From the sequence record LC739533.1: 64,000 bases of DNA. One strand, given 5' to 3'. Shown one piece after another: positions 47,871 through 62,438 of this stretch; within the stretch, counting starts at the first letter, position 1; each line of letters begins with the position of its first letter. Position numbers and translations under genes: made by a program. Source of the DNA: Escherichia phage phiWec179. The notes beneath the pieces were generated by a model. That model did no database searches and was not told the DNA's origin. It saw only the letters and a program-made list of their open reading frames with translations.

Positions 47871-47902
47871 AATGAGAATAATTATCATTATCATTCGTAT
47901 TC
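47871..47902. repeat. Fur-box-like ATTATC hexamer repeat; left copy of about 31-bp imperfect direct repeat
   Basis: aatgagaataattatcattatcattcgtattc; 28/32 identical to 62407-62438; core matches 19-bp Fur-box consensus as recalled at about 16/19. Confidence 0.5.
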
Positions 47903-48289
47903 AATAACTTAGGCGATCTTTTCCCCTGCTATAAGGTCGGGCCTAACTTAACCATCACTTTTCAAACAATCCTTTATCAATCAACTACTTAACAACCTAA
48001 ACATATGATTACTACGGTGTAAAGGTGCCGCCCATAACAGACTACCTATAAAATAGATGAGAATGATTATTATTCAGACAATTCTTACAACAAATCGACC
48101 AACAAATCAAGAATTTTCTTATTTTTATTCACGTTTAAGAGAACGTGCTCAACATTCCGCTACGCGTAACGGTTCGCCCCCAAAAGATTAGCCTTTGCTT
48201 TCCTGTATATTTATACACTATGTGCAAGGTGTCGCTACACGCTCGCCTTGCCCCGCATAATCCTTCACTGTGCTAATGATTTCATAGTG

Positions 48290-48445
48290 CAACAATAACA
48301 CTTATTATTATATTACGCTTAATTATTCTTACATACAATGCTAATAATAAGCCAGCGTAATTAGTGTAAGCGTAATACGCTTGCAATAATTGCAAGCTAC
48401 ATAATCACAAGAAATAACCATCACCGATGGTTATGATTGTGGGGG
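48290..48445. repeat. cluster of perfect palindromes in ORF-free region
   Basis: aagcgtaatacgctt and cttgcaataattgcaag adjacent; ataaccatcaccgatggttat; later atgataatggttatcat at about 48791. Confidence 0.5.
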
Positions 48446-48539
48446 TGTAGTTGGCTTATTATTAGCTCGCTACGTGTCCGGCGTAGCGTGCTAATGATGA
48501 CTCTATGAATGATTCATTTTGCAATTATTACAGTCTTCA

Positions 48540-48770
48540 CTATTTCGGCAATAGTTATTATTTTAATGGTTTCATTTGTTATCGTTAGTTAGTTGGTTGT
48601 TTTGTCGTGTTATCGTTATCTTGCTTAGTATTCATCATGGTTTGATTGTTTGTCGTTATCAATCATCTTTCTATTATTCCTTTGATTATGATTAGTTTGC
48701 TTATTGTTTTAAGTCGTTAGTTGGTTAGTTGTTGCGAACTGTTATCAACATTATAGTTATGCACTTATAT
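48540..48770. repeat. AT-rich iteron region (GTTATCGTT / TTAGTTGGTT repeats), candidate origin
   Basis: Repeated gttatcgtt, ttagttggtt, TTATCAACA (DnaA-box-like, one mismatch to TTATCCACA); no ORF of 60 aa or more in any frame across 47.6-49.05 kb. Confidence 0.4.
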
Positions 48771-49011
48771 TGCATAGATACGCAAGGGTAGATGATAATG
48801 GTTATCATTGCACTGGAAAGGAAGAAAACAGCCTTTTTCGGTTGTTTGTTGTTGGTTGTTGATCGATTTTAACCGCTCTAAATAGCTCTCTAATAGCCTG
48901 TTGCCCTGGGGTGTATGGTTATTCGTTTAATGGTTGATTAGCTCGATACCGCGATCTATTCAGTTTTGTTCTGTGTCGGTTTTTCATAGGCGGAATCTAT
49001 CAACATTGTTC

Positions 49012-49042
49012 GGGCAAAAAGAAAGGGCGCTTTGTGCGCCCT
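49012..49042 (-). terminator. rho-independent terminator closing the leftward small-gene array
   Basis: AGGGCGC-tttgt-GCGCCCT hairpin with T-tract on minus strand, just downstream of ORF 49057..49476. Confidence 0.5.
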
Positions 49043-49056
49043 TGTTTTGTTGTCAA

Positions 49057-49476
49057 TTATAACGCTTCATAGATTGAGTAGATCCGGTTTGCCAGGTCAT
49101 TACGAAAGCGGAATTTTTCATCACGTTTAATCATCAGATCCTTAAAACCGCATTCTTTCAAGGCTTCATTAACTTTACTGCGGCATACTTTCATATTGTC
49201 CTGCGCGTCACCAATAAACTTATTGCTATGATGCATTGTTTTGATCTCTTCCTCCAGGACCAGGGCAACTACACGGATCGGATCAAGCTGATACGCGGTA
49301 ACATCCATGCGGCATTGTAAACGGCTTTTAACATCGTTTACCGGATACACTGCAACCTCTTCCCCGTCAACGTTCACAATAACCAGCTTACCATCAATTT
49401 CGAAGCCTTTCGCGGCGCTACCGTGGCAAAAAGCGTTATCGAAGGAGTAAGCCGGATTATTTGATTTAATGTTCAT
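49057..49476 (-). CDS. hypothetical protein
   Basis: 139-aa ORF; E. coli-like GC-richer codon usage. Confidence 0.6.
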   Translation of the reverse strand: MNIKSNNPAYSFDNAFCHGSAAKGFEIDGKLVIVNVDGEEVAVYPVNDVKSRLQCRMDVTAYQLDPIRVVALVLEEEIKTMHHSNKFIGDAQDNMKVCRSKVNEALKECGFKDLMIKRDEKFRFRNDLANRIYSIYEAL

Positions 49477-49521
49477 GTTGTTGTCCTTTGTTTCGTTTCG
49501 TTGTTTGCTGCCAGTGAGTTA

Positions 49522-49550
49522 AATATAATATAACGCCGATCCCCTGTCAA
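49522..49550 (-). promoter_or_regulatory. sigma70-type promoter (minus strand) TTGACA-17-TATATT
   Basis: Minus-strand TTGACA at 49550-49545 with AT-rich -10. Confidence 0.45.
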
Positions 49551-49616
49551 TAGGCGATAGCGCATTATTTACATTTCTTTACGTTAAAGGGCGCTTAGTG
49601 CGCCCCTTGTACAATC

Positions 49617-49985
49617 TTACTTTGTGCTGTTGTAAACGTTATCGCGTTCAACCATCAGGGCAAGGCGGATCAGTTGATCAGTTGTATCGCGTAAGCTGTC
49701 AGGCCATGTTTTATTGTTCCAGCTATCTAAATTTGATTGAATATAGGTTTCAATGGCTTGATCCATATTGTCGAACAAGTTTTCCTCCAAGCTCTCGGCT
49801 GTTTCACACTGGAAAGCATCAGCGACACTATTAATCAATAAGCAAGCCAGTAAATCAGCGTTGCGCCAATTTTTACGGATAGTTTCATCTGTCAGATAAC
49901 CAACGAGATTAACCTTTGCGCCAGTGGTGGACGTTGCGATCACTTCTTGCGCTTTTTCAACTGCTTTAATTGCTGATTTGCTCAT
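49617..49985 (-). CDS. hypothetical protein
   Basis: 122-aa ORF. Confidence 0.55.
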   Translation of the reverse strand: MSKSAIKAVEKAQEVIATSTTGAKVNLVGYLTDETIRKNWRNADLLACLLINSVADAFQCETAESLEENLFDNMDQAIETYIQSNLDSWNNKTWPDSLRDTTDQLIRLALMVERDNVYNSTK

Positions 49986-50063
49986 CTTCTTTTCCTCTTT
50001 GTGGGCTTGCTGTATTGCTTGCCCTACGCAATAACTATAAGTTAACAGGGTGTATAAAGCAAG

Positions 50064-50297
50064 CTATTTTTTATAAAATTTTTCTGCTGTGATATTCTTC
50101 CCTGTAGGCTTAACCGCTTGCAAGATCTTATCATGTGCCGAACGTCCAAAGGAATAAGATCCGTAAACGGTAAACCAATAATCCCCGTTCGGTTGAACGG
50201 TTACGGCGGCGTATGGTGTGCCTTTTTCATTATCACCAATAAAGTGTGAAACATTGCCGTTAACGTTCGGTTTAGTGCTTTTAATTTGTTCGATCAT
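50064..50297 (-). CDS. hypothetical protein
   Basis: 77-aa ORF preceded by cassette. Confidence 0.55.
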   Translation of the reverse strand: MIEQIKSTKPNVNGNVSHFIGDNEKGTPYAAVTVQPNGDYWFTVYGSYSFGRSAHDKILQAVKPTGKNITAEKFYKK

Positions 50298-50315
50298 GAT
50301 GTGACTCCTAAATCA

Positions 50316-50374
50316 GGCGGGAAACATTCCCGCCCTACGTGATAAATAATAATATAAGGGTGATCCGGTGTCAA
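50316..50374 (-). promoter_or_regulatory. promoter-leader cassette (TTGACA-17-TATTAT then GGCGGGAA-acat-TTCCCGCC leader hairpin)
   Basis: Read on minus strand; hairpin lies between -10 and RBS. Confidence 0.5.
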
Positions 50375-50548
50375 TAGGTAGAATTGTAAAGATTTGATAG
50401 TTTATCTCTTTGATGTTTTGTTGTTTGATAGGTGTTAGCTATCAATATATAGCGGGGTCGTCCGGTGATTACCTCCCCCGTTGCCAGTGCCGCCCGTTCA
50501 GTAAGCATAACAAAAAACAGGACAAAAACAAGCCCTGTTTTGTAAAGA

Positions 50549-50752
50549 TTAGATGATCTGCATATCCTCCACGATAATTTCTAATTTCCAAACAAGATGA
50601 TCTAAGCTCCCTGATAAAAATGATTCCGATACATAACCGCCATCGGACACCGTAGCAAGGATCTCGCCATTTGCTTGCTCTTTGATTTGAACATCCAGGC
50701 GGTTAGCCTTTGCTTTGTTCAGGACGGCGATCAAGCGGTTAGCTGTAGTCAT
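50549..50752 (-). CDS. hypothetical protein
   Basis: 67-aa ORF. Confidence 0.5.
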   Translation of the reverse strand: MTTANRLIAVLNKAKANRLDVQIKEQANGEILATVSDGGYVSESFLSGSLDHLVWKLEIIVEDMQII

Positions 50753-50774
50753 GGTGTTTTCCTTCCAGTCGTGA

Positions 50775-50830
50775 GCGGCACCATTGCCGCCCTACGTGAT
50801 ACATCTTACACTATCAGATACATTGTGCAA
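50775..50830 (-). promoter_or_regulatory. promoter-leader cassette (TTGCAC-16-TAAGAT then GCGGC-accatt-GCCGC hairpin)
   Basis: Conserved gtgagcggcaccattgccgccctacgtgatacatcttac block. Confidence 0.5.
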
Positions 50831-50836
50831 GCTATT

Positions 50837-51028
50837 TTAGATCTCGTCACCTATATAATCAGATCTGTTTTTCTCTGTCATACGCTTAAGCAATTCTTGC
50901 ATATGGCTTATAGCTTGCAATGTGTCTTCTTCCAGGCTTGAATCGAGATAATCAGGATCATTCTTTACCTTGCTATGGTTGTGATACCGCAACGCTGCTA
51001 ATACCTTTCTAACTTGTTCTGCATTCAT
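50837..51028 (-). CDS. hypothetical protein
   Basis: 63-aa ORF. Confidence 0.5.
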   Translation of the reverse strand: MNAEQVRKVLAALRYHNHSKVKNDPDYLDSSLEEDTLQAISHMQELLKRMTEKNRSDYIGDEI

Positions 51029-51171
51029 TTTTATTACTCCTTAAAACCAGGTGCCAACCGTTTCCAATAAGTCACTGACTACCAGAACAACATTGATTAG
51101 CACATATTTAATCAGGAAGGGGATTAGCGCCAGCGTCGCTACTATGATCCCCATTATGATGATTATTTTTC

Positions 51172-51462
51172 TCATGGTTGGCGGTTTACGTGGGCTTTAC
51201 CGTTTACGGTCATCGGTATGGCCTCAAGGTCTGGATCTTCCTTAAGGTCGCGTGCAAGCTCACCGCACCGGATACCCTCGAATCCGTGGTATTCTGTTTC
51301 CCCGTCCTTAAAAGTTTTAGCGGCAAGGCATAGGCGATAATTAACACCGATCCGGTTTACTGCGTTGATATCGGTTAACGTGATCGATTCCGGCAAATCG
51401 TTAGCCATTACAGGCGCGTTAATACCAACAACCAGGGCAACTACTGCGATCATCTTTTTCAT
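51172..51462 (-). CDS. small secreted protein (signal peptide)
   Basis: MKKMIAVVALVVGINAPVMA N-terminus. Confidence 0.55.
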   Translation of the reverse strand: MKKMIAVVALVVGINAPVMANDLPESITLTDINAVNRIGVNYRLCLAAKTFKDGETEYHGFEGIRCGELARDLKEDPDLEAIPMTVNGKAHVNRQP

Positions 51463-51517
51463 GTGTCTATCCTCTTCCTATTGCGTTTAATGGGGGCGTT
51501 GCCGCCCCGCTTATGGT

Positions 51518-51754
51518 TTATTGCTTGATGTTATGATGAAAGTTATTTTCTTCAACGGCTTTTAAAATAAAAGCCGTGATCGCTTTCGTGTCTACTTGTT
51601 CGAACGTATCAGAATAGCACCAATAATAATCATCCCCTACTTTCGGCGGGTAAACCTGGACAAGGAGATCCCCACCATGTTGATCTATAAGCTCAACATG
51701 TAAGCCGGATGATTCAGCGGTTTTAACGGCGTTTAATACTGTTGCAATACTCAT
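51518..51754 (-). CDS. hypothetical protein
   Basis: 78-aa ORF. Confidence 0.5.
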   Translation of the reverse strand: MSIATVLNAVKTAESSGLHVELIDQHGGDLLVQVYPPKVGDDYYWCYSDTFEQVDTKAITAFILKAVEENNFHHNIKQ

Positions 51755-51798
51755 AATCTTTTCCTTTCTGATGTGGGGCGTTGCCGCCCCTTTGTTGA

Positions 51799-52098
51799 TT
51801 AGATCGCTGTTTCCAGTAGTTCGGCTAACGTCTTACCGCCTGATAGTTGGTCTAATGTTTGCTCTTCTGGCAAGAAATTAGCTGATATTAAACCGACTTG
51901 ATTCCCTTTGTGCCAGTTAGCCTGGCGGGTGATTCCATCCTTTAAGGATTTTACCGCCATTGTGCAACCGTCGCCAAATGATTCATTTTTATGGTCCATC
52001 ACTTCATAAGCGCCCAGCTTGCTGCTGTTAGGCACCATTAACGCGAATACATCACCAACAACCAGTTTTTCTACGGTAACAATAGCGATAGTTTCCAT
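51799..52098 (-). CDS. hypothetical protein
   Basis: 99-aa ORF preceded by cassette. Confidence 0.55.
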   Translation of the reverse strand: METIAIVTVEKLVVGDVFALMVPNSSKLGAYEVMDHKNESFGDGCTMAVKSLKDGITRQANWHKGNQVGLISANFLPEEQTLDQLSGGKTLAELLETAI

Positions 52099-52116
52099 TT
52101 TGTTTTCCTCATTATC

Positions 52117-52173
52117 GGCGGCACCATTGCCGCCCTACGTGGTAAATATTATCACACTGGCGATCTGTGTCAA
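52117..52173 (-). promoter_or_regulatory. promoter-leader cassette (TTGACA-16-TAATAT then GGCGGC-accatt-GCCGCC hairpin)
   Basis: Perfect -35 and perfect 6-bp stem. Confidence 0.55.
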
Positions 52174-52179
52174 TACTTT

Positions 52180-52566
52180 TTATTCAATATAAATCAAATT
52201 ATCTTCACCAATGTAAGCCGACACGTCCGGCATGAATTTAGCGGCATTTGTTAGGCGGTTGGCTGTGTTAGTTGTGTATATTTCAGGGCGATCCCAAAAT
52301 CCTACGCCGTGACCGTTACGGGTAAAATGTAAATCATTGCCGATCTGGTTGGCTGTAGCGCCGTCGCTCATTGCCTCAGAGATAGCGGCAAGATTAGCAT
52401 TAATAAAGGCTGTTACATCTTGGGCGATTCGTTCATCCGCACCAGGAGAAAAATCATAATCGCCTAAGTTATCAATAAAATCACCTTCGTGATCCCTGGC
52501 TGATTCAGCAAAAATAAAAGCCTCTTTATAACCGTTGATGATTTCAATAATGATTTCTGTTTTCAT
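52180..52566 (-). CDS. hypothetical protein
   Basis: 128-aa ORF. Confidence 0.6.
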   Translation of the reverse strand: MKTEIIIEIINGYKEAFIFAESARDHEGDFIDNLGDYDFSPGADERIAQDVTAFINANLAAISEAMSDGATANQIGNDLHFTRNGHGVGFWDRPEIYTTNTANRLTNAAKFMPDVSAYIGEDNLIYIE

Positions 52567-52787
52567 GCTGTACGCTCGACAATAATAATAGTTTGCGGGA
52601 TCTCGTTTTCTACTACTAACAAGGCTTTTTTCTGTGTGATAGATATTTTAACACGTTGTAAAGTAGCGGTAAAGTCTTTCATTTCGTTATGCGCCGACTT
52701 GCTGCAATGCCAGATCTCAGGCTTACCGACTTGTAAGCCGCGTAAAAATTCTGTTTTGCCTGTTTTGTTCGTGATCATCTGTTTCAC
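52563..52787 (-). CDS. hypothetical protein
   Basis: 74-aa ORF. Confidence 0.5.
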   Translation of the reverse strand: MKQMITNKTGKTEFLRGLQVGKPEIWHCSKSAHNEMKDFTATLQRVKISITQKKALLVVENEIPQTIIIVERTA

Positions 52788-52788
52788 C

Positions 52789-52893
52789 TTAACCGATACC
52801 GTGGGAAGATAGGATCATATTAGCCATAGTTGCAACCACTCCAACCGATAACGCCAGGCCAACCACTGCAACCGTGAAAATTTTCTCTAACAT
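52789..52893 (-). CDS. small hydrophobic peptide (34 aa)
   Basis: Not in track; RBS gaggg; single hydrophobic helix. Confidence 0.3.
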   Translation of the reverse strand: MLEKIFTVAVVGLALSVGVVATMANMILSSHGIG

Positions 52894-52956
52894 GATGCTA
52901 CCCTCATTAATGGGCGTTGCCTTATTGCCCCGCCCTACAAGATGAATACTACGCGC

Positions 52957-53139
52957 TTATTTTGCTGTTGTCAACAACGGGCGAAAAAACTTTTTGATCT
53001 GGCTTGCTGTTAGGCGCATATCTGCTTTGAGCGTTGCCAGGCGATAAGCTTTACCCTTAACCAGTTTATGGTGTCCGGTGCCGTTGCCGATGATAACATC
53101 AATTTCACACAATACGCGGGAAGCATCAATCTTTTTCAT
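52957..53139 (-). CDS. hypothetical protein
   Basis: 60-aa ORF. Confidence 0.45.
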   Translation of the reverse strand: MKKIDASRVLCEIDVIIGNGTGHHKLVKGKAYRLATLKADMRLTASQIKKFFRPLLTTAK

Positions 53140-53221
53140 GTTGTTACCTTTCGTGTTATGGGGCGCTTGTCGCCCCCTGTCTGATAAAGATAATCCCTTT
53201 CGGGATATCTGTCAACTATTT

Positions 53222-53407
53222 TTATTGTACGGTGTGGCGATCGCTGTATTCAGCGTAAAACTCACATCCATCGTCACGGCTATCAAGTTTAACGATGTAC
53301 CCGCTATTCCAACGTTCAACTGATACTACCGGATAATACTTCCCGTTAAGGATATTTTTCACCAGGTCGCCTTTTACCAGTTCTTTCGTTTTCTTATAAG
53401 TAGTCAT
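53222..53407 (-). CDS. hypothetical protein
   Basis: Start at ATG 53407 just after the leader cassette. Confidence 0.5.
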   Translation of the reverse strand: MTTYKKTKELVKGDLVKNILNGKYYPVVSVERWNSGYIVKLDSRDDGCEFYAEYSDRHTVQ

Positions 53408-53606
53408 GATGTTTTCTCTTCTGTTTTGCGGTGGACCGTTCCGCCGCCCTATGTGGTAAACTATACGCGCCAACGTTCCAGGCGTCAAGCATATTTTTAA
53501 AATTATTTTCTACAACGTAAAACGCCCCAGCATAAGCCAGGGCGCACTAATTAAATCAGGTAGGGGGATTGCATTGCCTTACACCTTTTAGGCTGTTAGC
53601 TGGCGA

Positions 53607-53834
53607 TTAATAGCGTAGGATGTTTACACGCTCATCCCGCCCCAAGATATCCTCATATCTGTTTCCCCTTCCTTCGTACCAGATGATCACGGTATGAGGA
53701 TCAAACGGATTGTTTTCGATAGCCGTTACCTTGCAGAAGTCATAAGACGGGAACGGATAAACGCCAACCTGTAAACGCGCCCGATCTCCTGGGCGAATGG
53801 TAGCGGCACGATCTGCAATGATATTGTTATACAT
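53607..53834 (-). CDS. hypothetical protein
   Basis: 75-aa ORF. Confidence 0.5.
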   Translation of the reverse strand: MYNNIIADRAATIRPGDRARLQVGVYPFPSYDFCKVTAIENNPFDPHTVIIWYEGRGNRYEDILGRDERVNILRY

Positions 53835-53958
53835 GGTGCACCCCCTTAATATTTTTCTTTTTCTTTGCTTCCGTTCGTCTAAGGTTACGGCTTGACTTGT
53901 TACGCAAGGCGCTCAAATCATCATAACCTTTAAAAGGTTGCATATTGTTCGGATTCAT
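53827..53958 (-). CDS. small basic protein
   Basis: Start at ATG 53958 (RBS aagggg). Confidence 0.4.
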   Translation of the reverse strand: MNPNNMQPFKGYDDLSALRNKSSRNLRRTEAKKKKNIKGVHHV

Positions 53959-53968
53959 GCTACGCCCC

Positions 53969-54323: not shown

Positions 54324-54329
54324 TACTTT

Positions 54330-56073: not shown

Positions 56074-56427
56074 TTATTCGTGGGAAAGTGTAAGGATCAC
56101 ACCTGCAATATATAACCAATAGTTTTCCCTTTCTTTCTGGATCTTGTTTTCGCTACTACGCTCGTTAATGTACCCCCAGGATGTTAACAACCGATCTACT
56201 TCCCAATACTCGAAAGCTATATTAATATTTGACGGTAAACCTTGTAACCATGATGCTATTGCTCTGATAATGTTATGATCGTAACGTTTTTGATTATCGG
56301 TGTACCAATATTCAGATTTAAAACAGCGCATCAATTCCGCGATCTTCTCTTTCTCTTCTGTGATGCCATACTCGCTATAATCAATTGAGGCCAGAATATA
56401 AAGTTTAATTGCATTTTGTGCTTTCAT
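56074..56427 (-). CDS. hypothetical protein
   Basis: 117-aa ORF preceded by cassette. Confidence 0.6.
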   Translation of the reverse strand: MKAQNAIKLYILASIDYSEYGITEEKEKIAELMRCFKSEYWYTDNQKRYDHNIIRAIASWLQGLPSNINIAFEYWEVDRLLTSWGYINERSSENKIQKERENYWLYIAGVILTLSHE

Positions 56428-56448
56428 GGTGTCTCTCTTCTGTTGTGA

Positions 56449-56504
56449 GCGGCACCATTGCCGCCCTATGTGTTACATCTTACCGGATTTTTAAAACTTG
56501 TCAA
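56449..56504 (-). promoter_or_regulatory. promoter-leader cassette (TTGACA-16-TAAGAT then GCGGC-accatt-GCCGC hairpin, CACAACAGAAGAGAGA, ATG)
   Basis: Worked example: minus strand reads TTGACAagttttaaaaatccggTAAGATgtaacacatagGGCGGCaatggtGCCGCtcacaacagaagagagacaccATG. Confidence 0.55.
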
Positions 56505-56726
56505 TCATTTTTCTACTATCATTTGATAACCTGTTTCAAGGTTAGTAAACACCGTGATCCCGTCCTGGCGTTCACTCATAAGCAAGCAAGGCGCTAACAT
56601 CCTTCCTACTTCCTTGCACTCGTTATAAGCGGCGGTAATGTCTCCCGCTGCTTTGTCTTCTGTGGTGAATGTATCGTTTACGTAAACTTTACCAGCGACA
56701 ACGGCGACAATAGCAAAAGTGATCAT
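56505..56726 (-). CDS. hypothetical protein
   Basis: Start at ATG 56726. Confidence 0.5.
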   Translation of the reverse strand: MITFAIVAVVAGKVYVNDTFTTEDKAAGDITAAYNECKEVGRMLAPCLLMSERQDGITVFTNLETGYQMIVEK

Positions 56727-56804
56727 GATGTTTTCCTCTTTGTGTTTTTCGTTTTGATTAGTTGATAATACAGCAATTCGCAGATTAGTCTTTAGCAATT
56801 CATG

Positions 56805-57023
56805 CTATTTACTCACAACAGTATCGAAAACAAATTTTTCTTTGTTGTCGAAGCTAACATATCCGATTCGACCACGCAAGCCGCCAGTAGTGCCGTATTC
56901 GTAACCATCAAGGCCTTTAACCTTCCAATCCGTACCCATTAAAACCGCATTATATTTCTGACCAACTACAAACGCGCCACCAGTTGATTCAATGCAAACA
57001 ACTTTAATTTTACGGATTGCCAT
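56805..57023 (-). CDS. hypothetical protein
   Basis: 72-aa ORF. Confidence 0.5.
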   Translation of the reverse strand: MAIRKIKVVCIESTGGAFVVGQKYNAVLMGTDWKVKGLDGYEYGTTGGLRGRIGYVSFDNKEKFVFDTVVSK

Positions 57024-57101
57024 TTTCTTTCTCTCTTTGTGGTGATTGGTTTCTCTTCTCTATAGCGCCCATTATAAGGCGCTATAACGAAAAGTCAACG
57101 A

Positions 57102-57269
57102 TTATTTTTTACGGCTTAAGGTGCCCAAGTTATCAGCGTGACGCAGACCAGGGAAGATCCAAGCGCCGGATTCATCTTTTACAGGTGCCTTAACACTTGC
57201 GCCCAGGTTGGCGGCGTTAACTTTACGTGCTACGTTGCGAGCGGCTTCACGGGTAGTAAAAGTAATCAT
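57102..57269 (-). CDS. small protein (55 aa)
   Basis: Not in track; follows leader cassette. Confidence 0.4.
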   Translation of the reverse strand: MITFTTREAARNVARKVNAANLGASVKAPVKDESGAWIFPGLRHADNLGTLSRKK

Positions 57270-57511
57270 GATGTTTTCCTCTTCTCTTTGTTAGGCGGTG
57301 GACCATTCCGCCGCCTTGATGTAATACAGTTTACTCTATTTTTATTTCTTTGCAACTACTTTTATATTTTCTTTCTTTGCCTCTTCCACCTGGTCCGCCC
57401 ACTGCTTACCCCACGTTTGAGCGTTATAGTGATATTGACAAAGAGCAACACCACGTTTTAAACCAGCGATAGACTTTTTACCACATTGACAAGTTTTCAT
57501 TTTGTGATCCC

Positions 57512-57724
57512 TTAGTTGATGATAGTCAGTGTAAAATTATAATCACCATTCTTATATAACACCATATTACCGAAGGTGCCGACTCGACGCATATCCATAC
57601 GGATACCTATAACATCTTTAACGTCTTTAATGTTTTTAACGCCCGTGATATCTTTATTAAAATATTCCTCGTCTGAAAATAAAACTTGACTTGCATTTTT
57701 TAACAGTGTGCGGATATTAGCCAT
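57512..57724 (-). CDS. hypothetical protein
   Basis: 70-aa ORF. Confidence 0.5.
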   Translation of the reverse strand: MANIRTLLKNASQVLFSDEEYFNKDITGVKNIKDVKDVIGIRMDMRRVGTFGNMVLYKNGDYNFTLTIIN

Positions 57725-57749
57725 CGTGATAATCTCTCTTCTGTTGTGA

Positions 57750-57807
57750 GCGGCACCATTGCCGCCCTACGTAATACAGTTTACTCTTTTTCTTTCCGGT
57801 GTCAACA
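57750..57807 (-). promoter_or_regulatory. promoter-leader cassette (TTGACA-18-TAAACT then GCGGC-accatt-GCCGCC hairpin)
   Basis: Conserved gtgagcggcaccattgccgccctacgtaatacagtttac block. Confidence 0.5.
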
Positions 57808-57813
57808 ATCTTT

Positions 57814-58041
57814 TTAGATTAATTCGTCCAGGCATAACAGGCGATCAACGTTGAGATCGGTCAGGCTGATGGTTGGCACCTGATAAGATTCGATGTACTC
57901 GACGCTTGCATATTCCCCAAAGTTAGCAATAGCCCACTTATTCAAGATCTCACATACATCATTAATCTTTTTGTTTGTTACAACTGCAATAACCTGGGAA
58001 GTGCCAACGGTGCCGGATACGCGAACAATATTGATAGCCAT
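57814..58041 (-). CDS. hypothetical protein
   Basis: 75-aa ORF. Confidence 0.5.
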   Translation of the reverse strand: MAINIVRVSGTVGTSQVIAVVTNKKINDVCEILNKWAIANFGEYASVEYIESYQVPTISLTDLNVDRLLCLDELI

Positions 58042-58060
58042 GATTTTTCTCTCTTCTGTT

Positions 58061-58118
58061 AGGCGGGGCGCTTGTCGCCCCTATGTGATACATCTTACAC
58101 TAATTTAAAACTTTGTCA
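58061..58118 (-). promoter_or_regulatory. promoter-leader cassette (hairpin variant GGGGCG-cttgt-CGCCCC)
   Basis: Near-identical to the copy at 54266. Confidence 0.5.
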
Positions 58119-58214
58119 AATTATTTTCTATTTCTTCCGTAATAGCCCAATTTATGATCTAAGCTAAAACGTTTTGTGAGATAGGTCGAACGATGTTTCA
58201 TTTTTATGTCTCCT

Positions 58215-58454
58215 TTACATTCCAACCATAGCGGCGCGGATCGCGGTAGTGCTATACTTGAAACCGTCTGGAGTTTTATCTTGTCCAGTCTGTTCCAGAA
58301 AGAGCATCATATCACGCGCCGCATCGTTACGGTTAGAATTATAACTAATAAATTCTTTCGCGGTGCGGTATAATGATTCATCGTTATTAATCCAAAGGCT
58401 TACATTCCAATGAGTTTTGTTTTTGTGACCTAAGAACATTTTTGATTTAGCCAT
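58215..58454 (-). CDS. hypothetical protein
   Basis: 79-aa ORF. Confidence 0.5.
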   Translation of the reverse strand: MAKSKMFLGHKNKTHWNVSLWINNDESLYRTAKEFISYNSNRNDAARDMMLFLEQTGQDKTPDGFKYSTTAIRAAMVGM

Positions 58455-58543
58455 GATGTTAATCTCTTTTTCAGTGAGGCGGGAACTATTCCCGCGCCCT
58501 ATGTAATACAGTTTACTCTTTTTATTCGTGCTGTCAATGCTTT

Positions 58544-58897
58544 TTATAAATCTTTTTTACGTTTTACATCGCTTGCATGACTGTATACAGCGATCCCATT
58601 ATCACGACAAAAACGGGTAAGGTATGATCCGCGTGAAAACTCTTTCCCTTCCAGGTCAACAACCTTGCTAAATTCTTCCAGGGCAACGGTATCAAAATGA
58701 TCACCATAACCATATTGAAACGGCACGTTAACAACTTCAATCAATTTACCGCCGATCTCAACGTCCACGCTTAAAGAAAAATATGTGTTACCGTAGGACT
58801 GTTGAAACCAGCGACGGGCGCTAATGTGAACGGCTTCAATCTCACCAATTTTAAATTGAGTGTTACCCAGGATCGCAACGTTGATATTTTTAGCCAT
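58544..58897 (-). CDS. hypothetical protein
   Basis: 117-aa ORF. Confidence 0.6.
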   Translation of the reverse strand: MAKNINVAILGNTQFKIGEIEAVHISARRWFQQSYGNTYFSLSVDVEIGGKLIEVVNVPFQYGYGDHFDTVALEEFSKVVDLEGKEFSRGSYLTRFCRDNGIAVYSHASDVKRKKDL

Positions 58898-58993
58898 GAT
58901 TTTTTCTCTCTTTTTGGTTAGTGGGAAGTGTTCCCGATAAAAGTTATTATGCTTATACTATCGTTTTTTGTCAATAGTATAAGACTAAAACTT

Positions 58994-59173
58994 TTAACGA
59001 TAATCATCGTAGGCTTTATTAACCTGGCGAATATAACATTCGAAAGCGAGATCAATAGAATCATATTCCCGCACATAATCCCCGTAAGAAACTACATACA
59101 CACCTTTTTGATCCTCAAACGTCATGATGATAGAATCCAGGCCGATGATTTCAGTTTTAGCGATGATAGTCAT
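58994..59173 (-). CDS. small protein (59 aa)
   Basis: Not in track; follows leader cassette at 59190-59250. Confidence 0.45.
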   Translation of the reverse strand: MTIIAKTEIIGLDSIIMTFEDQKGVYVVSYGDYVREYDSIDLAFECYIRQVNKAYDDYR

Positions 59174-59261
59174 AATAATAACCTTTTTATTGTTGGCGGC
59201 ACCATTGCCGCCCTACGTGATAAACTATACCAGAATTTTAAACAGTGTCAAACGTTTTTTC

Positions 59262-59507
59262 TTAGTTTGCGAAATATGGCGCGGCGGCTGATGCCGTTAA
59301 TCTCCAAGTGATTTGGCTATCGATCAAGTATTCTTCATTCTTGATCCGCACGGTATCAATCGAGAAGTTACTGAAAGGCTTGCTCTTGATTTTACGAACA
59401 ACCGTTACACGACGGTTATTTTTCATCTCTTTTAACTGAATCCAGGCGTAACCTTTTTCATTGACAAATATTTCATTGTGATTGGTGATAGATGATAAGT
59501 GTTTCAT
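59262..59507 (-). CDS. hypothetical protein
   Basis: 81-aa ORF. Confidence 0.5.
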   Translation of the reverse strand: MKHLSSITNHNEIFVNEKGYAWIQLKEMKNNRRVTVVRKIKSKPFSNFSIDTVRIKNEEYLIDSQITWRLTASAAAPYFAN

Positions 59508-59530
59508 GATTTTTCTCTCTTCTGTTTTGA

Positions 59531-59589
59531 GCGGTGGACCATTCCGCCGCCCTATGTGTTACATCTTACTACTTTTTTAAACATTGTCA
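59531..59589 (-). promoter_or_regulatory. promoter-leader cassette (hairpin variant GCGGtGG-accatt-CCgCCGC)
   Basis: gagcggtggaccattccgccgccctatgtgttacatcttac block with TTGACA on minus strand. Confidence 0.5.
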
Positions 59590-59598
59590 AGGATATTT

Positions 59599-59880
59599 TT
59601 AACTATATGATCCACATCGTTCGCAGTAGTGATCATCGTCGTCATCTGCTACCTGGCTGATAAAATGATCTACCTTTGCTTTCAAATTATTATAATTGCT
59701 TTCTACTTCCTGTAGTCGTCGTTGGTAGTATTCCAGGGCTTGCACATAGGCCATTTGTTCGGTTTTAGCTTGCATAGCTAAATTCATGCCACGCGTTTCA
59801 TCGTATAACCAATAACCATCATTACATTCACTAATAGATAGTGTAGGGCTTAGTTTTTCGTGACGGATAACCTTGCTCAT
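59599..59880 (-). CDS. hypothetical protein
   Basis: 93 aa; C-terminal CERCGSYS. Confidence 0.5.
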   Translation of the reverse strand: MSKVIRHEKLSPTLSISECNDGYWLYDETRGMNLAMQAKTEQMAYVQALEYYQRRLQEVESNYNNLKAKVDHFISQVADDDDDHYCERCGSYS

Positions 59881-59890
59881 AGTGTGCCCC

Positions 59891-60124
59891 TTACTTCAAA
59901 ATGATTGTTGTGATAACTGCTACGGTGATCCAGAATGGAACAACTAAGATAATAGCGTTAATCGTTCCAACTGTCAAACTATTTTCTTTCTTGATCATCA
60001 TGTTTTCCTTACAGTGTCCAAAGAATGATTTCAAGTGCAGCACGGAAACCAGGAATAAAATTGATTGCAAAAAACAGGGAAGTAGTAAACATTTTTCTAT
60101 CCTTTCAGTTGTGAGCGGCACCAT
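59891..60124 (-). CDS. small hydrophobic membrane protein(s)
   Basis: The track ORF may be two short hydrophobic peptides; exact start unclear. Confidence 0.35.
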   Translation of the reverse strand: MVPLTTERIEKCLLLPCFLQSILFLVSVLHLKSFFGHCKENMMIKKENSLTVGTINAIILVVPFWITVAVITTIILK

Positions 60125-60170
60125 TGCCGCCTGATGAGTTAACTATAAGGGATCACGTTTTACCTGTCAA
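60115..60170 (-). promoter_or_regulatory. promoter-leader cassette
   Basis: gtgagcggcaccattgccgcc with TTGACA on minus strand at about 60170. Confidence 0.45.
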
Positions 60171-60724
60171 CCTAAATCATCAAAATAAAGATAATTTTTT
60201 TCGGCTTCTTTCTTCTCTTCCTGTGATGCCTCAAAGACTGGGAGAAAGTGATCAAAGGCGACGCACTCAACCGCTTGATCGTCTTCCTCTTCCTGGTCTT
60301 CCTCCTGGGCTATGGCTGCAATTTTGGCTAATTTCCTTTCAGCCTGGATCAGCTTACCATCTAAAACGCTTTTAGCGGTGCTGTACGCCGTCCAAGTGAT
60401 GCGCTTACTTTCCAGCGCGGCATCAAGCGCCGCTATCTTGCTGGGGTATTCATCCAGGACACGAAAAGCCGGATCTACCTTGTACAGCGGATTATCTTTC
60501 GCGCCGTCGCTATCATCTGCGGCGCTTGCAATGTCAGCGTTACCATTCGCCAGCCAACCAGGGCGATCGCTGCGTGTTTTGGTATTCCCATGACTACGCG
60601 CCGATCTGTTGCCTACTTGCTCGCCACTATAGCCAGGAGCATGATCGATCATGTCGTCCGGTATAATGCGCGGATCATTAACGTCATGTTTTACCCAGGA
60701 CTGGATCACATATTCGCGCCCCAT
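60167..60724 (-). CDS. hypothetical protein
   Basis: 185 aa, largest protein in the array; RBS aaagggg. Confidence 0.6.
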   Translation of the reverse strand: MGREYVIQSWVKHDVNDPRIIPDDMIDHAPGYSGEQVGNRSARSHGNTKTRSDRPGWLANGNADIASAADDSDGAKDNPLYKVDPAFRVLDEYPSKIAALDAALESKRITWTAYSTAKSVLDGKLIQAERKLAKIAAIAQEEDQEEEDDQAVECVAFDHFLPVFEASQEEKKEAEKNYLYFDDLG

Positions 60725-60984
60725 TATACACCCCTTTTAACAATCATTTCACACACAAGAAATAAGCTGGCGGAATCACGGCAAGGATAGAAAGATGTAC
60801 GATAATCTCTCACCCCTGCTTTTATGATCTCCGTGGTTTTACCTGATAGCACATTGTAAATAGTGTAACTTGTCGGACTGTTTTTATATACCTTGCCAGG
60901 GTAGATCATAACATAACGAGCAAGGTTATAAAATTCCTCGTTACGAAAGGCTATGATCTTCCCGCATACCTTAAGAAAGTGCAC
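60724..60984 (-). CDS. hypothetical protein
   Basis: Probable GTG start with RBS aaggggg. Confidence 0.45.
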   Translation of the reverse strand: MHFLKVCGKIIAFRNEEFYNLARYVMIYPGKVYKNSPTSYTIYNVLSGKTTEIIKAGVRDYRTSFYPCRDSASLFLVCEMIVKRGV

Positions 60985-60994
60985 GTTAGCCCCC

Positions 60995-61267
60995 TTACAG
61001 CAAAAAGTTTACTTGTCTTGCTGTTAATGTAGTATCAACCATTTTCGGGCTTTTATAATTGACAAAACGCGCGGTTTTTTCAATAGCGAAGCCGAGATAA
61101 TCTTGTTTGTTGAAATTACATTCTTTCTTAAATGTTTCCCGTGCAATGGCGATCGCTGCGTCCAGGGATAAACGCCCGTCAATATTGATATTTGCGAAAG
61201 ATCCGCCACCGCTCATAGGTTTACCAGTGGTGCCCGTTACGATCATTGTTGCGCTATATGATGCCAT
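60995..61267 (-). CDS. hypothetical protein
   Basis: Start at ATG 61267 after the leader cassette. Confidence 0.5.
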   Translation of the reverse strand: MASYSATMIVTGTTGKPMSGGGSFANINIDGRLSLDAAIAIARETFKKECNFNKQDYLGFAIEKTARFVNYKSPKMVDTTLTARQVNFLL

Positions 61268-61357
61268 GATGATAATCTCTCTTAGTTGTGAGCGGTGGAC
61301 CATTCCGCCGCTCTACGTGATACATCTTATCAGGTTGTTGCCTGTTGTCAATACTTT

Positions 61358-61555
61358 TTATTCAAGCCCTACGATATGTAAGACACGGCGATTAGCAATA
61401 GCGTGCTGGTCTTCTGTTATAACGCCCATTTCTACCAGTGAATCAAGAAAGGAAAGCACCGTGATATATTCGTCATCGGGTACACTCATTTCATTAGTAC
61501 CGTTTACCACTACGTTGATTTGTCCTGCTTTCGCTACAATGTGCAATGTTGCCAT
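61358..61555 (-). CDS. hypothetical protein
   Basis: 65-aa ORF, first gene of the array. Confidence 0.5.
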   Translation of the reverse strand: MATLHIVAKAGQINVVVNGTNEMSVPDDEYITVLSFLDSLVEMGVITEDQHAIANRRVLHIVGLE

Positions 61556-61829
61556 GATCTTAACTCCAGGTGATGAATGATGTTTTTTGTTGGTTGACGG
61601 TGGATTATGGAGATCCTCACCTTTGCCCGTCCTGCATTGCGCCCTCCTGTTGTTTATTGTCGTTGTGCCTCGCCCCCCTCGACAAGATTAATACTACGCT
61701 ACCAGGTGCGGAACGTCAACGACTTTTTCAATCTTTTTTATTTTCTTTTTGCTTGCTATATATAAAGGAAAGGGCTATCATCTTTCTACCGCGCCAACCA
61801 GGGCGCACAACAGAAGAAAGGGCGACACC

Positions 61830-62096
61830 ATGACAACTACTACATTACACCTTATGCACTCGTTAGGCTGGCAAGGCGGCACGGTCCACCAGGTAGCAAG
61901 CGCAACGGGCTTAAAGGTTGAAACAGTTCTCAACCTGGGCGATCATAAAGTGGAAGAGATAGACCATTTTGATCCGTTCGCTGATGGTTATCTCTGGGCT
62001 TGCAGTGGCGGCGGGGAAAGCAAGATACCGCCAGCCGCGCGGGGCGATATGCATTTTTGGTTAGGTGTTCTCTCCTGGCAAGAAAACAAAAAATAA
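61830..62096 (+). CDS. hypothetical protein (isolated rightward gene)
   Basis: Start at ATG 61830; leader has GCGCC-aaccag-GGCGC hairpin followed by ACAACAGAAGAAAGGG, mirroring the minus-strand cassettes. Confidence 0.5.
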   Translation: MTTTTLHLMHSLGWQGGTVHQVASATGLKVETVLNLGDHKVEEIDHFDPFADGYLWACSGGGESKIPPAARGDMHFWLGVLSWQENKK

Positions 62097-62098
62097 TC

Positions 62099-62133
62099 TT
62101 GACAAGCCCAGGGATCGGGCTTATACTGTTTTA
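62099..62133 (+). promoter_or_regulatory. orphan sigma70-type promoter TTGACA-17-TATACT
   Basis: Consensus -35 at 62099-62104, 17-nt spacer holding an AGCCC/GGGCT inverted repeat, -10 TATACT; no downstream ORF of 60 aa or more. Confidence 0.5.
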
Positions 62134-62140
62134 CATACAG

Positions 62141-62240
62141 AAGAGGAAGCGCCACCCCACGGCGTAAAGGCGGGGCTAACATACCAGGGGCACTGGTTGG
62201 AAGGTCGATCGCCGGGAGGCTGGGCGCTATATATTTGTAA
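62141..62240 (+). ncRNA. candidate small structured RNA downstream of orphan promoter
   Basis: GC-rich, self-complementary stretches after the promoter; no credible ORF; ends uncertain. Confidence 0.25.
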
Positions 62241-62351
62241 AGAAATGTAAAGATAAAATAATCGCTTGCTTTCCTGGCTGGATCTGTTATTCTTATTACA
62301 TGGCGAGGGGACACGGGAGCGCGAGACAATCACCGGACCTGCCCGTCATTC

Positions 62352-62378
62352 TGCAAATGAGAAAAATTCTCATTTGCA
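62352..62378. promoter_or_regulatory. perfect 27-bp palindrome, operator-like
   Basis: tgcaaatgagaa aaa ttctcatttgca, 12-bp arms. Confidence 0.5.
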
Positions 62379-62405
62379 AATAAGACTCATTCGCATTTAA
62401 TAATT

Positions 62406-62438
62406 GAATGAGAATCATTCTCATTCTCATTCGTATTT
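62406..62438. promoter_or_regulatory. perfect 21-bp palindrome plus right copy of about 31-bp direct repeat
   Basis: gaatgagaat c attctcattc (62406-62426); 62407-62438 is 28/32 identical to 47871-47902. Confidence 0.5.

Follow-up and report, generated by a model that had tools for sequence, protein, structure and literature searches.

Putative Fur operator arrays in the terminal repeat and a second non-coding region of the virulent Escherichia phage phiWec179

Introduction

The DNA of Escherichia phage phiWec179 analyzed here (LC739533.1), a stretch of 64,000 nucleotides referred to as the window, contains two closely similar sequences of about 31 bp on either side of a 14.5-kb block of small genes. 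Such an arrangement raises the question whether the block was acquired or exchanged by recombination, or whether the repeats are duplicated binding sites that coordinate its boundaries. Both options were left open in the initial annotation. The analysis described below favours binding sites, probably for the host protein Fur.

The repeats are members of a larger family of palindromic boxes

The repeat pair, at 47871-47902 (copy 1) and 62407-62438 (copy 2), was confirmed: the copies are identical at 28 of 32 positions and lie on the same strand. A repeat search gave 28/31 (90 %) over 47871-47901 and 62407-62437. A degenerate 31-mer allowing up to three mismatches matched the 64 kb at these two places only, compared with an expectation of 0.00 derived from 100 dinucleotide shuffles. 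Of the four differences, three are indeed A to C changes. They were thought to occupy the same place in successive hexamers, but this holds only for positions 14 and 20, in ATTMTC hexamers; position 10, the third of them, falls on the central spacer base of a 7-1-7 palindrome. Nor are the two non-coding regions of this area flanked by the copies, as had been assumed; copy 1 lies within region A (~47600-49056) and copy 2 within region B (~61556-62916). The block between them is compositionally distinct, as annotated, with an AT skew of -0.10 to -0.16 over 48-62 kb.

These two copies resemble each other more closely than do any other members of a larger family, of which the repeat search found four 28-nt copies in the window (at 47862, 48047, 62398 and 62438). 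Both the identity of a regulator and these further copies had been missed earlier. In each repeat copy, Fur-type hexamers are arrayed around the palindrome TGA[G/T]AATnATT[A/C]TCA. Scanning the window with this palindrome yielded six sites with at most one mismatch (47873, 48058, 48793, 62358, 62409 and 62449; 0.13 expected), all showing the 7-1-7 / 9-1-9 inverted-repeat structure and all confined to regions A and B.

In region A, copy 1 (minus strand, GATAATGATAATTATTCTC) holds a pair of 7-1-7 Fur-type sites that overlap with an offset of 6 bp; the first (47873-47887, TGAGAATAATTATCA) has no mismatches and the second (47879-47893) has two. Further boxes are found at 48058-48072 (TGAGAATGATTATTA), hereafter D1, with copy 1 as D2, and in non-coding DNA at 48793-48807 (TGATAATGGTTATCA). 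The region B cluster starts with a 27-bp palindrome at 62352-62378 (TGCAAATGAGAAAAATTCTCATTTGCA, box core 62358-62372), followed by a weak, degenerate box with three mismatches (62381-62395, TAAGACTCATTCGCA). Copy 2, on the minus strand, has a perfectly palindromic core at 62409-62423 (TGAGAATCATTCTCA) followed by ATTCTC/ATTCGT hexamers; its +6 site is weak, with three mismatches by manual count on the sequence. A perfect box at 62449-62463 (TGAGAATAATTCTCA) completes the cluster. Altogether the phage appears to carry about 6-8 near-consensus Fur-type sites, in non-coding DNA only.

Copy 1 lies in the predicted terminal repeat and the block is the right genome arm

Phages of this group end in direct terminal repeats (DTRs) (PMC12695924). 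The DTR of phiWec179, predicted by homology to the annotated 343-bp DTR of phi92 and supported by a four-genome alignment, would span 332 bp at 47818-48149, on the minus strand; this strand is the forward orientation of the phage, so that the repeat runs from 48149 to 47818. The boundary motif GTT(G/A)^AGCAC is present at both edges, and the records of relatives terminate exactly at the equivalent of 48150. Copy 1 is located inside this inferred DTR, 53-84 bp from a physical genome end, and the distance of the two DTR boxes D1 and D2 from the inferred terminase cuts is 53-91 bp. Being inside the DTR, these two boxes occur at either end of the genome. The layout is two boxes in the DTR, one (48793-48807) immediately before the right-end repeat, and four to five clustered in region B, on the upstream border of the right-terminal early-gene arm.

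Since copy 1 lies inside the DTR, the supposed module is the right-terminal early-gene arm of a linear genome. Its small-gene array (49057-61555, minus strand) comprises at least 11 cassettes, each with a TTGACA-17-TAAGAT promoter and a 5' hairpin. The proposal that the copies mark the recombination boundaries of a mobile or exchangeable 14.5-kb module, as att-like sites, exchange points or a target-site duplication, could draw on the same-orientation direct repeats around a compositionally distinct block and on the block content, which differs between relatives. However, every relative has the arm, which is variable in length (10.6, 11.5 and 14.5 kb) and in content. Between the DTR and region B of the relatives no 31-mer match exceeds 25/31, and the one that reaches it uses a different DTR box; the 31-bp identity is therefore lineage-specific. 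Moreover, there are more than two copies, these are internally palindromic hexamer arrays of the protein-operator type, and no integrase or transposase candidate was found in the block, in which the largest ORF encodes 185 amino acids. The mobile-module reading is largely refuted and scarcely credible. The two copies are better regarded, with fair confidence, as independent instances of an operator array for host Fur than as recombination scars.

The boxes are conserved in relatives and recur in T5-like phages

Comparison of nine phages infecting E. coli, Klebsiella or Salmonella showed that boxes are present in all nine, which belong to the Stephanstirmvirinae and Vequintavirinae, while the surrounding non-coding DNA diverges. 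The box motif is conserved across these two subfamilies. A complete 144.8-kb relative carries five near-consensus sites, all at equivalent places (0.1 expected), and in the left 50 kb of phi92 the two DTR boxes are the only near-consensus ones. The copy 1 box and its flanks are identical in phi92, with the remaining DTR diverging, and the phi92 counterpart of D1 is a canonical 7-1-7 site (TGATAATGATTATCA). The third region A box is also found in phAPEC8 (1658) and DIJ07P2 (92188). In phAPEC8, Schickermooser, dw-ec, FBKp34 and SSBI34 boxes are spaced by exactly 29 bp, a regularity that is unusual for host Fur clusters and reminiscent of iterons.

The motif is also carried by the terminal repeats of T5-like phages. 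Identity is 100 % over 30 nt with phAPEC8, and relatives show exact matches of 19-30 nt to T5-type DRC/pal repeats. A sequence matching copy 2 at 28/32 was found in the terminal repeat of chee24, a T5-like phage, which places copy 2 in the DRC/palE-G-I family by sequence. The matching T5 sites are the annotated palE, palG (AAATGAGAATCATTATCATTT), palI and DRC1-4, repeats that have been annotated but not explained (10.1101/866236). In both cases the motif is clustered in non-coding DNA of a virulent enterobacterial phage. The T5 cluster occupies the untranslated Repeat Region 3, the injection-stop-signal region of the long terminal repeat, where it is interleaved with paired DnaA boxes beside the 7.9 % nick. 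No consensus DnaA box was found in regions A or B, and no homologue of the T5 pre-early genes A1 and A2 or of dmp in the window. The T5 repeat is 10 kb and coding, whereas that of phiWec179 is 332 bp and non-coding. Copy 1 and D1 lie in the inferred DTR, like the T5 repeats, whereas copy 2 and the rest of the region B cluster lie 14.5 kb inside the genome. Measured from the right end, the cluster is located at 14.5 kb (~9.4 %), 11.5 kb (7.7 %) and 10.6 kb (7.3 %) in three genomes, compared to 7.8-7.9 % in T5.

The boxes resemble host Fur operators

Copy 1 matches the classical 19-bp Fur box GATAATGATAATCATTATC at 17 of 19 positions, the best match in the window, and copy 2 at 15 of 19. Both copies are as close to the consensus as proven Fur sites, which show 50-80 % identity to it, and the first 19 nt of copy 1 agree at 18 of 19 positions with the Vibrio Fur consensus AATGATAATAATTATCATT (PMC7536154). 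A 6-bp spacing of overlapping 7-1-7 sites, accommodating two dimers, is typical for E. coli Fur clusters (PMC2189734) and was found at 47873/47879 in copy 1 and at 9614/9620 in T5. A matrix of 29 sites was near-invariant at T4 G5 A6. A8 A9 T10 / A12 T13 T14. T16 C17 A18.

Searching 5,426 E. coli genomes with copy 1 gave best matches that were short and weak (E 0.4-5); all four that were inspected lie in iron-uptake promoters, three of them between divergent fepB/NRPS genes and the fourth ahead of the gene for a TonB-dependent receptor. Two of these sites read AATAATTATCATTtTCATTCGTATT and TGAGAATAATTATCATTAT. As a positive control, the pattern was applied to 27 kb of K-12 around ent/fep, where it matched the entC Fur operator only. 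The phage boxes share with these E. coli operators the 7-1-7 / 9-1-9 palindrome and the 6-bp overlap (PMC11353095, PMC2189734), natural E. coli iron-promoter sites are matched almost exactly over 22-25 nt, and the phage box is nearer to the consensus than most chromosomal operators. Unlike the E. coli boxes, they occur in non-coding DNA of a virulent phage, have no iron-related gene beside them and form 29-bp arrays in several relatives.

They also differ in their relation to promoters. In E. coli 83 % of Fur clusters overlap promoters (PMC2189734). A consensus promoter scan found no sigma-70 promoter (at least 9/12) overlapping any box, which leaves a classical operator-over-promoter role unsupported. 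Weak -35/-10-like hexamers adjoin D1 and D2; the arrangement at D2 is disrupted by hexamer slippage in phAPEC8.

On this sequence evidence, the boxes are probably operator arrays for host Fur, built on the palindrome AAATGA[G/T]AATnATT[A/C]TCATTT extended by GATAAT-type hexamers. The earlier suggestion of duplicated regulator-binding sites is supported in its essentials, the repeats being arrays of a protein-binding palindrome that matches the host Fur operator.

The surroundings of the region B cluster and other candidate binders

Upstream of the cluster and pointing toward it is a near-consensus sigma-70 promoter, TTGACA-17-TATACT (62099-62127, plus strand, 11/12), whose spacer contains a hairpin (62104-62122) that is the terminator of the gp224-like gene. 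The promoter hexamers are invariant in nine phages and the spacer hairpin covaries. The promoter is followed by a highly conserved non-coding element (62133-62345, plus strand), probably a structured RNA, which ends ~10 bp before the first box. Rfam searches with this element yielded no family, only matches at chance level. A minus-strand ORF called over it in phAPEC8 is frameshifted in Schickermooser. The first cluster box (62358-62372) keeps a fixed position beside the element in all nine aligned phages.

The palindromes might alternatively act as RNA hairpins or weak intrinsic terminators for plus-strand RNA from 62099-62127. A terminator scan flagged 62405-62433 as a hairpin with a T-run, and the cluster begins ~10 nt past an RNA-like element. 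However, the stems are AT-rich, Rfam matches stayed at chance level, and the boxes are also found in the DTR and in T5, where such an RNA context is absent. At the variable half-site position of the 29 boxes G was found 32 times, T 25 times and C once; when folded, the variable positions mismatch in 19 of 29 boxes, without covariation. The uncorrelated halves point to a DNA-protein site and not to an RNA hairpin, and the RNA reading is very unlikely.

The binding protein might be encoded by the phage, as a repressor, small terminase, iteron-binding initiator or gp224-like protein, in which case the sites would be Fur-like by resemblance only. The spaced arrays, exactly 29 bp in five relatives, would fit iterons or operator arrays, and two boxes 53-91 bp from the inferred terminase cuts are where cosB/pac-type sites are expected. 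G is preferred where the Fur consensus has T, being slightly commoner than T at half-site position 4. This position (A14 on the other strand) has been flagged as a possible Fur contact (PMC7536154); the affinity for Fur may therefore be lower than mismatch counts suggest, or the true binder may be G-preferring. The gp224-like gene (61830-62096, plus strand, 88 amino acids), the sole plus-strand gene in the area, encodes an HTH-like invariant stretch and adjoins the region B cluster, on the opposite strand, in every relative. Its product was considered as the binder but is not supported: the motif stays constant while the protein diverges to 40 % identity, and homology searches found it absent from T5-like genomes, which carry the identical motif. 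Furthermore, at the sensitivity of sequence-level homology searches, none of 17 T5 terminal-repeat proteins has a homologue here. The failure to find a phage protein common to both families speaks for a host binder, and across the 29 sites practically all specified positions of the host Fur consensus are matched. A phage-encoded binder is considered rather unlikely; host Fur is the preferred candidate.

Discussion

If host Fur is the binder, Fe2+-Fur would occupy the boxes in an iron-replete cell, with two dimers overlapping on copy 1 and a series of spaced dimers in region B. The resulting stable nucleoprotein blocks would be situated within the terminal repeat and, in region B, between its convergent transcription units. 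Such blocks would most likely be iron-dependent roadblocks or repressors of transcription crossing or starting there, including, in region B, read-through of the RNA from the invariant promoter at 62099-62127. Host iron starvation would release them. As a side effect, replicating phage DNA would be a sink for Fur. The candidate roles for the boxes are a roadblock or iron switch, a Fur sink, and terminus architecture. Host DNA is degraded early in T5 infection, which excludes an effect of a Fur sink on host genes as the function common to both phage groups.

A far-reaching extension, which we regard as unlikely, is that Fur is deliberately recruited at the termini of unrelated virulent enterobacterial phages. 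The T5 injection-stop palindromes would be Fur sites, and the early-gene arm of rV5/phi92/phAPEC8-like phages, the right-terminal 7-10 % of the genome, would correspond in function to T5 first-step-transfer DNA, with the same box array as its boundary. Through Fur, host iron status would then control DNA entry or the transition between the first and second stages of infection.

The Fur box is a textbook element, and one is found upstream of stx1 in temperate phage. In phage lambda, IHF sites in cosB place a host architectural protein near the DNA ends. The DTR boxes of phiWec179 likewise lie tens of bp from the inferred terminase cleavage position, but protein and motif differ and extra copies lie 10-15 kb from the end. 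Single Fur boxes upstream of temperate-phage cargo genes are already known, such as that upstream of sitABCD in lambdoid coliphages (PMC6969025). Like the phiWec179 boxes, the cargo boxes of sitABCD and stx1 are host Fur operators on phage DNA, but each is a lone operator over the promoter of an iron-related moron that the prophage expresses, whereas phiWec179 is virulent, has no iron cargo and carries multi-site arrays at the genome termini and in a control region. A full-text literature search yielded no description of a conserved near-consensus Fur-type set in virulent phages, here restricted to terminal repeats and a single control region and common to two families unrelated at the protein level. 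Motif identity, regional confinement, conservation and terminal-repeat location are observed; that Fur binds, and with what effect, is deduced from them.

Binding by Fur would give a concrete, testable identity to the T5 palE/palG/palI/DRC repeats beside the injection-stop point. It would suggest that these phages sense the iron state of the host, or borrow an abundant host repressor for DNA architecture or as a roadblock. Replicating phage DNA could absorb a sizeable share of cellular Fur. If true, such uptake would be relevant to infections in the iron-poor gut and to phage-therapy candidates, as phAPEC8-, rV5- and T5-like phages are widely used.

Fur-type architecture of the repeat copies

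Both copies of the imperfect direct repeat (copy 1, 47871-47902; copy 2, 62407-62438) were recovered on the same strand, identical at 28 of 32 positions or, in the register of the repeat finder, at 28 of 31 (family D17). Only these two sites in the 64-kb window fit the degenerate 31-mer with up to 3 mismatches, while dinucleotide shuffles predicted none, and the two copies form the most similar pair of a larger repeat family (D10). Both centre on the palindrome TGAGAATnATT(A/C)TCA, followed by further ATTMTC/ATTCGT hexamers. The initial annotation assigned three A-to-C differences to one shared position in consecutive ATTMTC hexamers; this holds for two of them, the third being the central base of the palindrome.

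The Fur box, the well-known binding site of the host ferric uptake regulator, is GATAATGATAATCATTATC in E. coli and can be interpreted either as a run of GATAAT hexamers or as a pair of overlapping 7-1-7 inverted repeats, bound by one dimer, by two dimers or as an extended array (PMC11353095). By sequence, the architecture of the copies is that of a Fur binding site. Copy 1, GATAATGATAATTATTCTC on the minus strand, agrees with the E. coli Fur consensus at 17 of 19 positions, the best match in the window, and copy 2 at 15 of 19. The published consensus for Vibrio Fur, AATGATAATAATTATCATT (PMC7536154), fits the first 19 bases of copy 1 with one mismatch. Two 7-1-7 sites are present in copy 1 at a distance of six bases, the spacing of E. 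coli Fur clusters (PMC2189734). In a set of 29 boxes a single specified position varies freely (G 32, T 25, C 1). The two half-sites vary independently and folding would leave a mismatch in 19 of the 29, which argues for DNA sites read by a protein rather than hairpins.

Comparison of the copy-1 region with 5,426 complete E. coli genomes yielded few, short and individually weak matches (E 0.4 to 5). All four matches inspected were located in iron-acquisition promoters, three in a divergent intergenic region between a gene for a fepB-type siderophore-binding protein and a non-ribosomal peptide synthetase gene, and one directly upstream of a TonB-dependent receptor gene. One match, AATAATTATCATTtTCATTCGTATT, carries the 'CATTCGTATT' extension that makes the phage copies resemble a long repeat, and another, TGAGAATAATTATCATTAT, shares 19 identical bases with copy 1, including the non-textbook G. 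Sites were scored by consensus mismatch counts with one positive control, a 27-kb stretch of E. coli K-12 around ent/fep. In this stretch the same pattern with up to 2 mismatches gave one match, the entC Fur operator. The remaining known Fur operators there are more degenerate, so that the phage boxes are nearer to the Fur consensus than most chromosomal sites.

Distribution of the boxes and the linear genome

Two large non-coding regions stand out from the listed ORFs and from how the closest relative is annotated: region A (~47600-49056) and region B (~61556-62916). Each copy lies inside one of them; contrary to the initial annotation, the copies do not flank the two regions. Six sites in the window have at most one mismatch to TGA[TG]AATnATT[AC]TCA (47873, 48058, 48793, 62358, 62409 and 62449), all of them in region A or B; the chance expectation was 0.13. 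The complete genome of a Phapecoctavirus (144.8 kb), assembled from three sequence segments, has five such sites (0.1 expected), two in the equivalent of region B, three in that of region A and none elsewhere in the genome. phi92 has just two in its left 50 kb, and both fall within the left terminal repeat. The motif thus occurs more than twice, but it is confined to regions A and B and not scattered over many other genome positions, the distribution that would have made the flanking a coincidence.

The direct terminal repeat annotated in phi92 (343 bp) has its match in region A, and the physical right end of phi92 corresponds to window position 47818. Alignment of the window with phi92, phAPEC8 and the complete Phapecoctavirus genome places a putative direct terminal repeat of 332 bp at 48149 to 47818, in forward orientation. 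The sequence GTT(G/A)^AGCAC, found at 47818/47817 and 48150/48149, at the start of the repeat and just beyond its end, is kept in phi92, phAPEC8 and DIJ07P2 and is a candidate terminase cleavage motif. The records of two relatives terminate exactly at the equivalent of 48150. The ends of the phiWec181 record fall within a gene, reflecting arbitrary linearisation, and are uninformative on the position of the repeat. Copy 1 lies 53-84 bp from the repeat end and a second box (48058-48072) 77-91 bp from the repeat start. Conservation within the terminal repeat is highest in these two boxes and the sequence directly beside them, and in phi92 the second box is a canonical site, TGATAATGATTATCA.

With copy 1 in the terminal repeat, the block between the copies, initially annotated as a 14.5-kb module possibly recombined between repeats, is the right-terminal arm of the linear genome; it appears internal because the assembly joins both genome ends. 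The recombination or mobile-module reading was rejected on this ground, together with the lineage-specific pairing of the 31-mer and the absence of any ORF longer than 185 aa from the block. The pair is not conserved in relatives: in phi92, phAPEC8 and the complete Phapecoctavirus genome the best within-genome match of a 31-mer between the terminal-repeat region and region B is 25 of 31, and it pairs a region-B box with a terminal-repeat box other than copy 1. The equivalent of copy 1 in phAPEC8 is displaced by whole hexamers. On the sequences compared, the long repeat is lineage-specific and the motif is not. The copies are one operator type evolving independently, not a conserved pair of recombination sites.

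Escherichia phage phiWec181 matches the window at 96-100% identity, with phAPEC8, phi92 and others of the subfamily Stephanstirmvirinae as further kin. The homology match lists include records under the names of Pseudomonas (PsgM04F), Campylobacter and Acinetobacter phages, 80-96% identical to these coliphages; the hosts given are doubtful, and contamination or mis-assignment may account for them. Between 44.6 kb and the window end the genes are on the minus strand, the forward orientation of the phage, except for the gp224-like gene. The small-gene array (49-61.5 kb, minus strand) carries at least 11 cassettes of ~75 nt (50764-61351, minus strand) 5' of small genes, each combining a strong promoter of the host type (TTGACA-17-TAAGAT) with a 5' hairpin downstream of it. 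This hairpin is conserved (GGCGGCA-ATGG-TGCCGC), RNA stability or processing being possible roles. No tRNAs were found in the window. Between the last gene of the right arm and the terminal repeat are ~900 bp of non-coding DNA (48150-49056), rich in short CAACCAAC/AACAA-type repeats, with a hairpin terminator at 49023-49043 and one Fur-type box at 48793. The first three genes past the terminal repeat (46407-47512, minus strand) are paralogues (phrog_2510) that share an N-terminal NIPLSS..L..FY..W motif. They have a conserved promoter of their own, GTGTCA-17-TAGAAT (47653-47625), with no Fur-type box.

Organization of region B

The layout of region B is constant in nine phages of two subfamilies with E. 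coli, Klebsiella or Salmonella as host. It comprises the small gp224-like gene (61830-62096), the sole plus-strand gene of the area, a plus-strand promoter with a hairpin terminator in its spacer (62099-62127), a conserved element of ~215 nt (62133-62345, plus strand) and a cluster of one to five boxes per phage. The position of the first box is fixed, and in five of the nine phages the boxes are spaced by exactly 29 bp. The TTGACA and TATA(C/A)T hexamers of the promoter are invariant, while its hairpin covaries. The ~215-nt element, downstream of this TTGACA-17-TATACT promoter, is nearly invariant; its core, CCCCACGGCGTAAAGGCGGGGCTAA, does not change and the adjacent hairpin loops vary by indels. 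RNAalifold returned helices with some compensatory changes and G-U pairs that favour the plus strand. No Rfam family was matched in the whole window at gathering thresholds, and permissive thresholds over 62080-62520 yielded chance-level matches only, on the palindromes. The core is not a host element, as the genomes of 185,579 species contained it in just one 4-kb MAG contig. The element probably encodes a phage non-coding RNA that has yet to be described, antisense to every neighbouring gene.

Several other features of region B were observed. Within the conserved element, a direct repeat GTAAA-N5-GTAAA (62237-62251) is present in eight of the nine phages with a varying N5 (GAAAT, GAAAC, GAAGT). 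The consensus CpxR binding site has this form; the repeat could be a CpxR-type site or equally an RNA motif. A 62-nt direct repeat occurs in two copies, 84% identical (62478-62539 and 62617-62678), and a good plus-strand promoter, TTGAGA-16-TAGAAT (62605-62632), antisense to the neighbouring genes, stands ahead of the second copy. The NADAR-domain gene upstream (62917-63444, minus strand; Pfam PF08719, E = 1e-33) is labelled 'GTP cyclohydrolase II' in the records of several relatives, which is probably a spread annotation error. The promoter and AT-rich repeats might suggest that region B is a replication origin, but this was not supported: GC skew tracks gene orientation and is uninformative, and neither region A nor region B contains a consensus DnaA box.

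The same boxes in T5-like phages

A scan of IMG/VR viral contigs for the exact 19-mer gave 69 loci, many on contigs from bacterial isolate genomes; those on T5-like and Stephanstirmvirinae contigs were examined further. Contigs of 108-121 kb among the matches belong to T5-like phages, e.g. AKFV33 and chee24, and hold clusters of two to four near-perfect boxes in the untranslated part of the annotated left terminal repeat, interleaved with DnaA boxes. In T5 the boxes coincide with the long-annotated palindromes palE (AATACGAATCATTATCATTCGTATT), palG (AAATGAGAATCATTATCATTT) and palI and with the direct repeats DRC1-4. They occupy positions 9468-9637, where the calculated shear point of first-step transfer falls (9618), shortly ahead of the 7.9% nick. 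The palindromes of this region have been listed in a 'bewildering array' of conserved repeats, in a preprint dedicated to the region that treats DnaA boxes and possible restriction-type cleavage without mention of Fur (10.1101/866236).

The counterpart of copy 2 in chee24 matches it at 28 of 32 positions (AATGAGATTGATTCTCATTATCATTCGCATTT). Region B of phAPEC8 shares 30 consecutive identical bases with chee24, TTAAATGCGAATCATTATCATTTGCATTTC (positions 1424-1453 and 2423-2452 of the respective sequences), and the phAPEC8 terminal repeat shares 21. The 30-base identity joins a phAPEC8-like myovirus and a T5-like siphovirus and exceeds the length that a single Fur site needs. Horizontal exchange of non-coding DNA during co-infection by virulent phages, or else the constraint of overlapping sites, may account for it. 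The 'TTTCACTTTT' motif of the 62-nt repeats reappears between the boxes of T5 Repeat Region 3. Elsewhere in T5 (AY587007.1) a perfect TGATAATCATTATCA lies in the dmp coding sequence (233-247), 233 bp from the left end. A box with 1 mismatch occurs in chee24 at +17 to +31 nt from the physical left end, where T5 has none.

The T5 cluster lies between the rightward pre-early genes and a leftward gene, and the region-B cluster likewise amid convergent transcription. The cluster is 7.3-9.4% of the genome from one end in the present phage group versus 7.8-7.9% in T5, a parallel that is speculative. Machinery of the T5 type was considered and rejected, for want of A1, A2 or dmp homologues and of DnaA boxes.

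Candidate binders of the boxes

The two phage families have hosts and motif in common but no relevant protein, which makes a host protein the simplest binder; host Fur probably binds the boxes. The main rival, a phage-encoded binder missed at sequence-level sensitivity, is considerably less likely. The obvious candidate, the gp224-like protein (88 aa, phrog_19316), is conserved in Stephanstirmvirinae, Vequintavirinae and relatives such as Pectobacterium phage phiTE, and was found in 150 genomes of the rV5/phi92/phAPEC8 type but in no T5-like genome. It belongs to no Pfam family. Its AlphaFold model is confident (pLDDT 93.4) and all-alpha, with no significant structural relative in the PDB and no DNA-binding fold standing out. 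Conversely, homologues of the 17 proteins encoded by the T5 terminal repeat, A1, A2 and dmp among them, were not detected in the window, in the left 50 kb of phi92 or in the complete Phapecoctavirus genome.

Possible role and significance

Classically a Fur box covers a promoter. Such an arrangement was rejected here: no promoter scoring at least 9/12 overlapped any box in the window, and the manual candidates (TTGAAT-18-TATTCT at the copy-1 box, TTGATT-17/18-AAGAAT at the 48058-48072 box and nAGAAT beside the first region-B box) are weak and not consistently conserved, that at copy 1 being disrupted in phAPEC8 by hexamer slippage. The conserved feature is where the boxes lie, close to the terminal-repeat ends and, in region B, between converging transcription from the upstream genes, including the NADAR-domain gene, on the minus strand and from the invariant 62099-62127 promoter, which points toward the boxes on the plus strand. 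Boxes near the termini may also be purely architectural, serving packaging, entry or end protection. Our best guess is that metal-loaded Fur would form stable complexes on the boxes, acting as iron-dependent roadblocks or repressors at the boundaries of the terminal repeat and region B. The Fur pool is some thousands of molecules per cell, and as a secondary effect many copies of phage DNA, with at least eight strong sites each, might compete for it.

Single Fur boxes have been reported upstream of iron-related cargo genes in temperate phages, such as sitABCD in lambdoid coliphages (PMC6969025). In the full-text literature searched, with few subscription journals included, arrays of Fur-type sites in virulent coliphages are not described and the T5 palindromes are not linked to Fur, although an earlier report may exist. 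In the GenBank records of some relatives the region-B cluster carries no more than an unlabelled 'repeat_region' feature. The finding is conserved, common to phage families and directly testable, and it bears on a classical unsolved feature of T5.
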